A stretch of DNA of 64,000 nt from Eledone cirrhosa (lineage: Eukaryota), in NCBI GenBank assembly GCA_964016885.1, contig OZ024758.1, positions 28,458,001 through 28,522,000 of the forward strand, in the 5' to 3' direction. Under the pieces are notes generated by a model that worked only from the letters and a program-made list of their open reading frames with translations, did not search any database and was not told where the DNA came from. A program made the position numbers and the translations under genes. Of this stretch, positions 29,549-29,560 are shown in pieces (position 1 is the stretch's first letter; each line of letters opens with the position of its first letter).

Positions 29549-29560
29549 CTTGTTGCTCTT
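29549..29560 (-). CDS. CADPS: Candidate 12-nt symmetric phase-1 microexon of CADPS, (E)EQQ
   Basis: Minus strand: ttctcttttctaatttggtatctcAG|AAGAGCAACAAG|GTGAGCta. Strong donor, pyrimidine tract with CTAAT, frame-preserving, phase matches the 18991 acceptor. Confidence 0.6.

Follow-up and report, generated by a model that had tools for sequence, protein, structure and literature searches.

The 64,000-nt stretch of Eledone cirrhosa DNA that was analysed (the window) contains part of the gene for the calcium-dependent secretion activator CAPS, on the minus strand. The frame at 18991-18885 matched the Pfam MUN domain (E 4.2e-09) as well as the rat CAPS-1 fragment 6A68, and its best match was the Octopus sinensis calcium-dependent secretion activator, with 100% identity across the 90% of the query that aligned. 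This O. sinensis CAPS carries C2_CAPS, PH and MUN domains, which identifies the gene as CAPS/CADPS/UNC-31, and this downstream exon was found in all 15 listed octopod CAPS proteins. When the window was scanned with six-residue words from the same 15 proteins, the optional exon B was the only other exon found; exon A, the upstream constant exon and two optional pieces past the downstream exon were not found within the 64 kb. Between exon B and the downstream exon lies a 12-nt exon, designated exon C; the intron from B to C measures 14,921 nt and that from C to the downstream exon 10,557 nt. The features are given below in the order of transcription.

44482..44514 (read 44514-44482), minus strand: exon B, 33 nt, optional, based on a CTG repeat and encoding poly-alanine followed by GLVSG, with a TGCATG 53 nt past its donor.
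29561..29796, minus strand: acceptor region of exon C, with CAG, a pyrimidine tract and a 236-nt AG-free zone.
29676-29681, minus strand: second TGCATG copy, upstream of exon C.
29665-29671, minus strand: TACTGAC, candidate branch point at -111 from exon C.
29601-29606, minus strand: TACTAA, candidate branch point at -46 from exon C.
29573..29577, minus strand: CTAAT, candidate branch-point-like motif at -17 to -13 from the exon C acceptor.
29549..29560 (read 29560-29549), minus strand: exon C, a 12-nt cassette microexon, phase 1 at both ends, adding EEQQ to CAPS; its spliced translation is present in proteins P0001, P0122 and P0131.
29543..29548, minus strand: donor of exon C, GTGAGC, matching 8/9 consensus positions when the exonic AAG is included.
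29499..29504, minus strand: TGCATG, 45 nt past the exon C donor.
18885..18991 (read 18991-18885), minus strand: downstream CAPS exon, 107 nt, Pfam MUN, with the solved CAPS-1 fragment 6A68 starting in it.

The window also holds repeats. Two tandem arrays, with array matches of 94-95%, occupy 45957-64000 (48 bp x 376 copies, intronic, upstream of exon B) and 34951-40662 (46 bp x 124 copies, between exons B and C). Broken fragments of LINE-type reverse transcriptases, both intronic and on the plus strand, were observed at 30725-31951, where the RVT_1 match was above the cut-off, and at 6927-7668, where it was below. At 9748-12584, inverted terminal repeats of ~600 nt (91-100% complementary) surround two overlapping minus-strand frames (11992-10876) that we take to resemble a Penelope-type GIY-YIG endonuclease; neither frame gave a Pfam match.

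A first-pass annotation had proposed a 12-nt CAPS/CADPS microexon with an AAG|GTGAGC donor and an acceptor preceded by a pyrimidine tract and CTAAT, and the splice-site scores agree with it. Exon C falls in the 3-27 nt range of cassette microexons, is bounded by AG and GT, keeps the frame and contains no stop; it reads in phase 1 as (E)EQQ, the first E being encoded by a junction codon that uses the upstream G. The pyrimidine share over the 22 nt preceding the acceptor is 0.77, and five TCTC or CTCT words occur within 130 nt of the acceptor region. Branch points usually lie farther from the AG than the CTAAT of exon C. The AG-free zone is the fifth longest among 1926 on the minus strand and consists of 128 nt of unique sequence (p ~0.0007 at the AG rate of the intron, for a single site) followed by 108 nt of microsatellite. 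The surroundings had been described as non-repetitive, which is correct for the exon and ~128 nt upstream and incorrect directly beyond, where the sequence turns into runs of (TA)n and (CT)44. TGCATG, presumably an RBFOX-type motif, occurs in 37 copies per 40,244 nt of minus strand, and its similar spacing after exons C (+45) and B (+53) was noticed after the fact. RNA pairing around the two TGCATG sites near exon C appeared in the predicted fold; the region gave a z of -0.74, with 46 of 200 shuffles as good, and the pairing was rejected. Three contigs from one sample cover 29246-29700 with no differences; they are possibly the window's own source, so they are not counted as independent.

Splice signals throughout the window, the two tandem arrays excluded, were filtered for a YAG acceptor, a donor of at least 7/9, a pyrimidine share of at least 0.7 and an AG-free zone of at least 20 nt, the input being AG...GT pairs 3-27 nt apart in multiples of three. 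Exon C was the sole passer among 995 pairs on the minus strand, and none of the 1031 pairs on the plus strand passed. Because the thresholds were chosen post hoc, with exon C already known, and the genuine exon B fails them (donor 6/9), the filter is insensitive; its result says that exon C stands out in the window and does not speak for the filter as an exon finder.

The predicted junction peptide had been proposed for a search of cephalopod CAPS proteins, and it was present in RefSeq. Splicing exon B, exon C and the downstream exon together gave a peptide found exactly in all three EEQQ-bearing O. sinensis proteins, isoforms X3 (P0131, XP_036356651.1), X5 (P0001, XP_036356657.1) and X19 (P0122, XP_036356688.1), and exon C is therefore already annotated. 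These three are identical to the window across exon B, exon C and the downstream exon, with no difference seen, and the O. bimaculoides and Argonauta proteins likewise show no difference in exon B and in the downstream exon. Splicing exon B directly to the downstream exon gave a peptide present in 3/3 of the skipped forms tested. RefSeq isoform models rest on RNA alignments. In this annotation, exon C is included in three and skipped in five of the eight listed O. sinensis isoforms. EEQQ was absent from the six O. bimaculoides isoforms and the single Argonauta protein among the listed proteins (15 of the 42 in the cluster). A search for shorter fragments of cephalopod CAPS returned 58 matches, none with EEQQ; in a profile-free search of 1.84 billion representatives EQQES was absent among the 150 matches listed. 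Among the matches listed in the protein searches, none was named as a decapodiform CAPS.

Exon C closes a stack of three optional pieces, which the first reading had missed. The octopod junction follows an invariant KIE and can receive piece A (6 residues, ANERAA, encoded outside the window), piece B (11 residues) and piece C (4 residues). Among the 15 listed of 42 octopod proteins, three carried nothing at the junction, two carried A, two B, five A+B and three A+B+C, giving possible insert lengths of 0, 6, 11, 17 or 21 residues. Exon C was thus encountered in these 15 proteins only alongside A and B. Pieces A and B are common to O. sinensis, O. bimaculoides and Argonauta. Optional inserts also cluster at a second junction, directly past the downstream exon (P0001 residues 675-690), where octopods have pieces of 16 and 8 residues, encoded outside the window, vertebrate CADPS and CADPS2 have 3 residues (GKE, GRE, ARE), and other molluscs have inserts of various lengths.

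The junction was surveyed in 157 labelled proteins from 11 invertebrate groups, of which 146 were parsed and 11 dropped for lack of a pattern match. Forms with and without an insert occurred in nine of the 11 groups (oysters, scallops, heterobranch snails, Mya, Mercenaria, Haliotis, sea urchins, sea stars and octopods), and in the same survey Mytilus and Nicrophorus showed no optional inserts at the junction. Across animals the inserts span 2-40 unrelated residues, and those of the other animals would be encoded by separate exons, judging from their protein sequences. Nested or stacked pieces were also seen in oysters, scallops, Haliotis and sea urchins, and several bivalve and gastropod inserts start with a basic GRK. 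No EEQQ-like insert was found among the other molluscs and the echinoderms surveyed, and EQQES occurred in three of 515 fetched proteins, all from O. sinensis. In the CAPS proteins of Mercenaria and Mya (P0030-P0042, P0135, P0323-P0350), two different junction inserts never occurred together in 19 and 15 listed isoforms, respectively, which suggests mutually exclusive microexons.

Vertebrates carry inserts of 23 and 6 residues at this junction, singly or together (P0147, P0148, P0142, P0182 and CADPS2 forms). The 23 residues are those of mouse Cadps exon 16a (69 nt), which occupy the junction in P0138 and P0147; the 6-residue inserts of CADPS and CADPS2 are of the NQKDA and PAEKE types. As in octopus, these vertebrate pieces share the one junction, are optional and can be stacked, whereas their lengths differ from that of EEQQ and their sequences bear it no significant likeness. 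Exon 16a begins with basic residues (GKKRE), in contrast to the acidic and polar EEQQ. Mouse exon 16a is reported to be enriched in nociceptors and to increase CaV2.2 currents (PMC13232204). Because EEQQ shares no sequence with it, the analogy to channel coupling is positional only.

A likeness of the octopus peptide to the vertebrate CADPS insert ENQKDA had also been suggested. The position was confirmed, the 6-residue insert lying at the octopus EEQQ junction (P0148 and P0395 versus P0001), and sequence kinship was not. EEQQ scored 11 (BLOSUM62) against ENQKDA; among random 4-mers, 2.1% of those with CAPS composition and 9.5% of those limited to polar residues scored at least as high. The first E comes from the upstream G in both octopus and vertebrate, and when it was kept constant in the nulls these values rose to 5.2% and 19.5%. 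Against five other vertebrate forms among the fetched proteins, the scores of EEQQ were reached by 8-39% of composition nulls and 14-67% of polar nulls. Piece A (ANERAA) has the vertebrate insert length of 6 and also scored 11 against ENQKDA; its score of 15 against an anole CADPS2 form was reached by 0.3% and 1.8% of nulls, this being the best of ten comparisons, and it scored poorly against the lamprey, primate and turtle CADPS2 forms. Exon C therefore shares with ENQKDA its junction; the two differ in length (4 versus 6 residues) and lack significant similarity, and among the 515 fetched proteins EQQES occurs in no intervening lineage. With peptides this short, orthology cannot be established and position is the sole firm link. 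Most likely, the EEQQ peptide arose in the octopus lineage and not by descent from the vertebrate ENQKDA exon.

The insertion site was placed on predicted structures. The Pfam MUN match covers residues 593-981 of P0001, with the insert within its start, and the alignment to 6A68, which we take to be the DAMH domain, begins at residue 639, the first residue past EEQQ. P0001, the N-terminally incomplete protein that carries EEQQ, gave a model with a mean pLDDT of 63.5 and a pTM of 0.40, with pLDDT below 50 at the site; this model was discarded for placing EEQQ as too poor there. A model of Argonauta residues 78-1261 (mean pLDDT 72.5, pTM 0.48) showed a helix at 723-763, running through piece A and the alanines, a coil at 764-777 (pLDDT ~50) and a helix at 778-801, the flanking helices having block pLDDT values of 75-89. 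Exon C was placed by position because the Argonauta protein is without it; its residues would enter the coil between positions 769 and 770 of the model. According to this model, pieces A and B would lengthen the preceding helix by about three turns and GLVSG would end it, and the downstream optional pieces would lie at the opposite end of helix 778-801. The DAMH domain has been described as SNARE-binding (PMC12702071). EEQQ is thus predicted to sit in a loop that leads into the first helix of the SNARE-binding (DAMH) fragment.

The signals around exon C were compared with those of known microexon classes. Published features of exons dependent on the eMIC domain are an extended AG exclusion zone, tracts rich in UCUC, branch motifs of the CUAAY type and, close to the acceptor, a UGC (PMC8797185). 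Exon C shares with these eMIC/SRRM4 neural microexons a long AG exclusion zone (236 nt), a CU-rich tract and a CUAAY motif (CTAAT at -17). No TGC was present in the last 40 nt before its acceptor, the nearest being at -121, and exon C has a strong donor and introns of 10-15 kb, whereas the fly eMIC set has weak donors and short introns. Since three eMIC features are present but the UGC is absent, exon C was not filed as an eMIC target. Cadps is not among the genes that PMC8797185 names for eMIC exons shared by fly and mouse, which are spg, EndoB, unc-13 and unc-104. In worm and mouse, unc-13 and unc-31/Cadps have been reported to contain neuron-type-specific microexons (PMC12287369). Like exon C, these are optional, frame-preserving exons of 3-27 nt in a MUN-domain gene, CAPS/UNC-31 included; the 9-nt exons of that report encode VLK and GLK, unlike EEQQ, and the neuron-type specificity is reported for worm and mouse. 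A study of 20 bilaterians including O. bimaculoides describes neural exons that recur at the same coding positions, with ~3% of the neural exons of outgroup species conserved and most others convergent (bioRxiv 10.64898/2026.09.05.749416). The situation here resembles its Type I convergent neural exons, in which different exons occupy one coding position in several lineages. CADPS and unc-31 do not occur in the main text of that preprint; its supplements may list such exons.

The RefSeq models and the splice signals together make it very probable that exon C is a real spliced exon. The alternative is that the locus holds nothing beyond an AG...GT pair arisen by chance within an intron of 25 kb, and there were indeed 96 chance pairs with 12-nt spacing on the minus strand, besides the thresholds having been set post hoc; three RefSeq proteins nevertheless have exactly these four residues where they are expected, which leaves a chance pair highly improbable. 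A further reading accepts the splicing and regards exon C as young, weakly included and functionless, derived from chance splice sites beside the (CT)n run in a tolerant loop, RefSeq having caught low-level splicing. Its absence from all six O. bimaculoides isoforms and from Argonauta among the listed proteins, while the neighbouring pieces A and B are conserved, is consistent with this, as are the missing UGC near the acceptor, the 108 of 236 AG-free bases supplied by microsatellites and the range of unrelated inserts that the junction tolerates across animals. Against it are the 8/9 donor, the 128 nt of unique AG-free sequence, the similar placing of TGCATG after exons C and B, and the presence of EEQQ in three of eight listed O. 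sinensis isoforms; moreover, absence from models does not equal absence from the genome, and 15 of 42 cluster members were listed. We regard a functionless exon as unlikely.

Common descent of exon C and the ENQKDA exon from one ancestral bilaterian microexon was considered as well. The junction and phase, read from the proteins, are the same, each directly precedes the constant exon as the final optional piece (octopus P0001, turtle P0148), and the BLOSUM62 score is matched by 2% of composition-matched 4-mers. However, the lengths differ, 20% of polar nulls reach the score once the junction E is fixed, EEQQ-like inserts are lacking in the other molluscs and echinoderms surveyed, and the conservation of neural exons reported for outgroup species is low, most others being convergent (10.64898/2026.09.05.749416). 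Shared ancestry is accordingly very unlikely.

We conclude that exon C is probably an optional microexon of octopus CAPS (CADPS/UNC-31) which places EEQQ where the MUN domain begins, in a loop predicted to lie on the surface, which is likely switched on in neurons, and which would tune vesicle release. A neural bias of its inclusion is somewhat favoured by the comparison with known microexons. The exon would be too short for ordinary exon definition, and its inclusion may be aided by the strength of its donor, by the extended pyrimidine zone free of AG and by the downstream TGCATG, under the control of neural splicing factors. Inclusion would then alter the length and charge of the loop and might thereby adjust the contacts of CAPS with its partners. 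This last step is the least secure, drawn as it is by analogy from mouse, where exon 16a, another exon at this junction, affects CaV2.2, and a measurable effect of EEQQ on secretion can be proposed only tentatively.

A broader reading, which we offer as speculation and think rather doubtful, is that the CAPS loop before the SNARE-binding bundle is a bilaterian-wide 'socket' that is refilled in each lineage. The octopod three-part stack, with poly-alanine helix extenders and a newer acidic EEQQ cap born beside the (CT)n run, would set calcium-channel or SNARE coupling by neuron type and would be an independent counterpart of mouse exon 16a.

Exon C itself is an unremarkable example of a known pattern and is present in public gene models; as CAPS and UNC-13 microexons are a described class, the finding adds little in this respect. 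Neither the octopus exon nor the role of the junction as a recurrent insertion site was the subject of any paper found in the literature covered, which excludes subscription journals and bioRxiv supplements. The value of the exon is modest and comparative, in that unrelated optional inserts occupy one junction from oysters to sea urchins to mammals. Because one of these inserts has a tested role in channel coupling, the junction lends itself readily to testing whether microexons that converged on one site also perform the same job.
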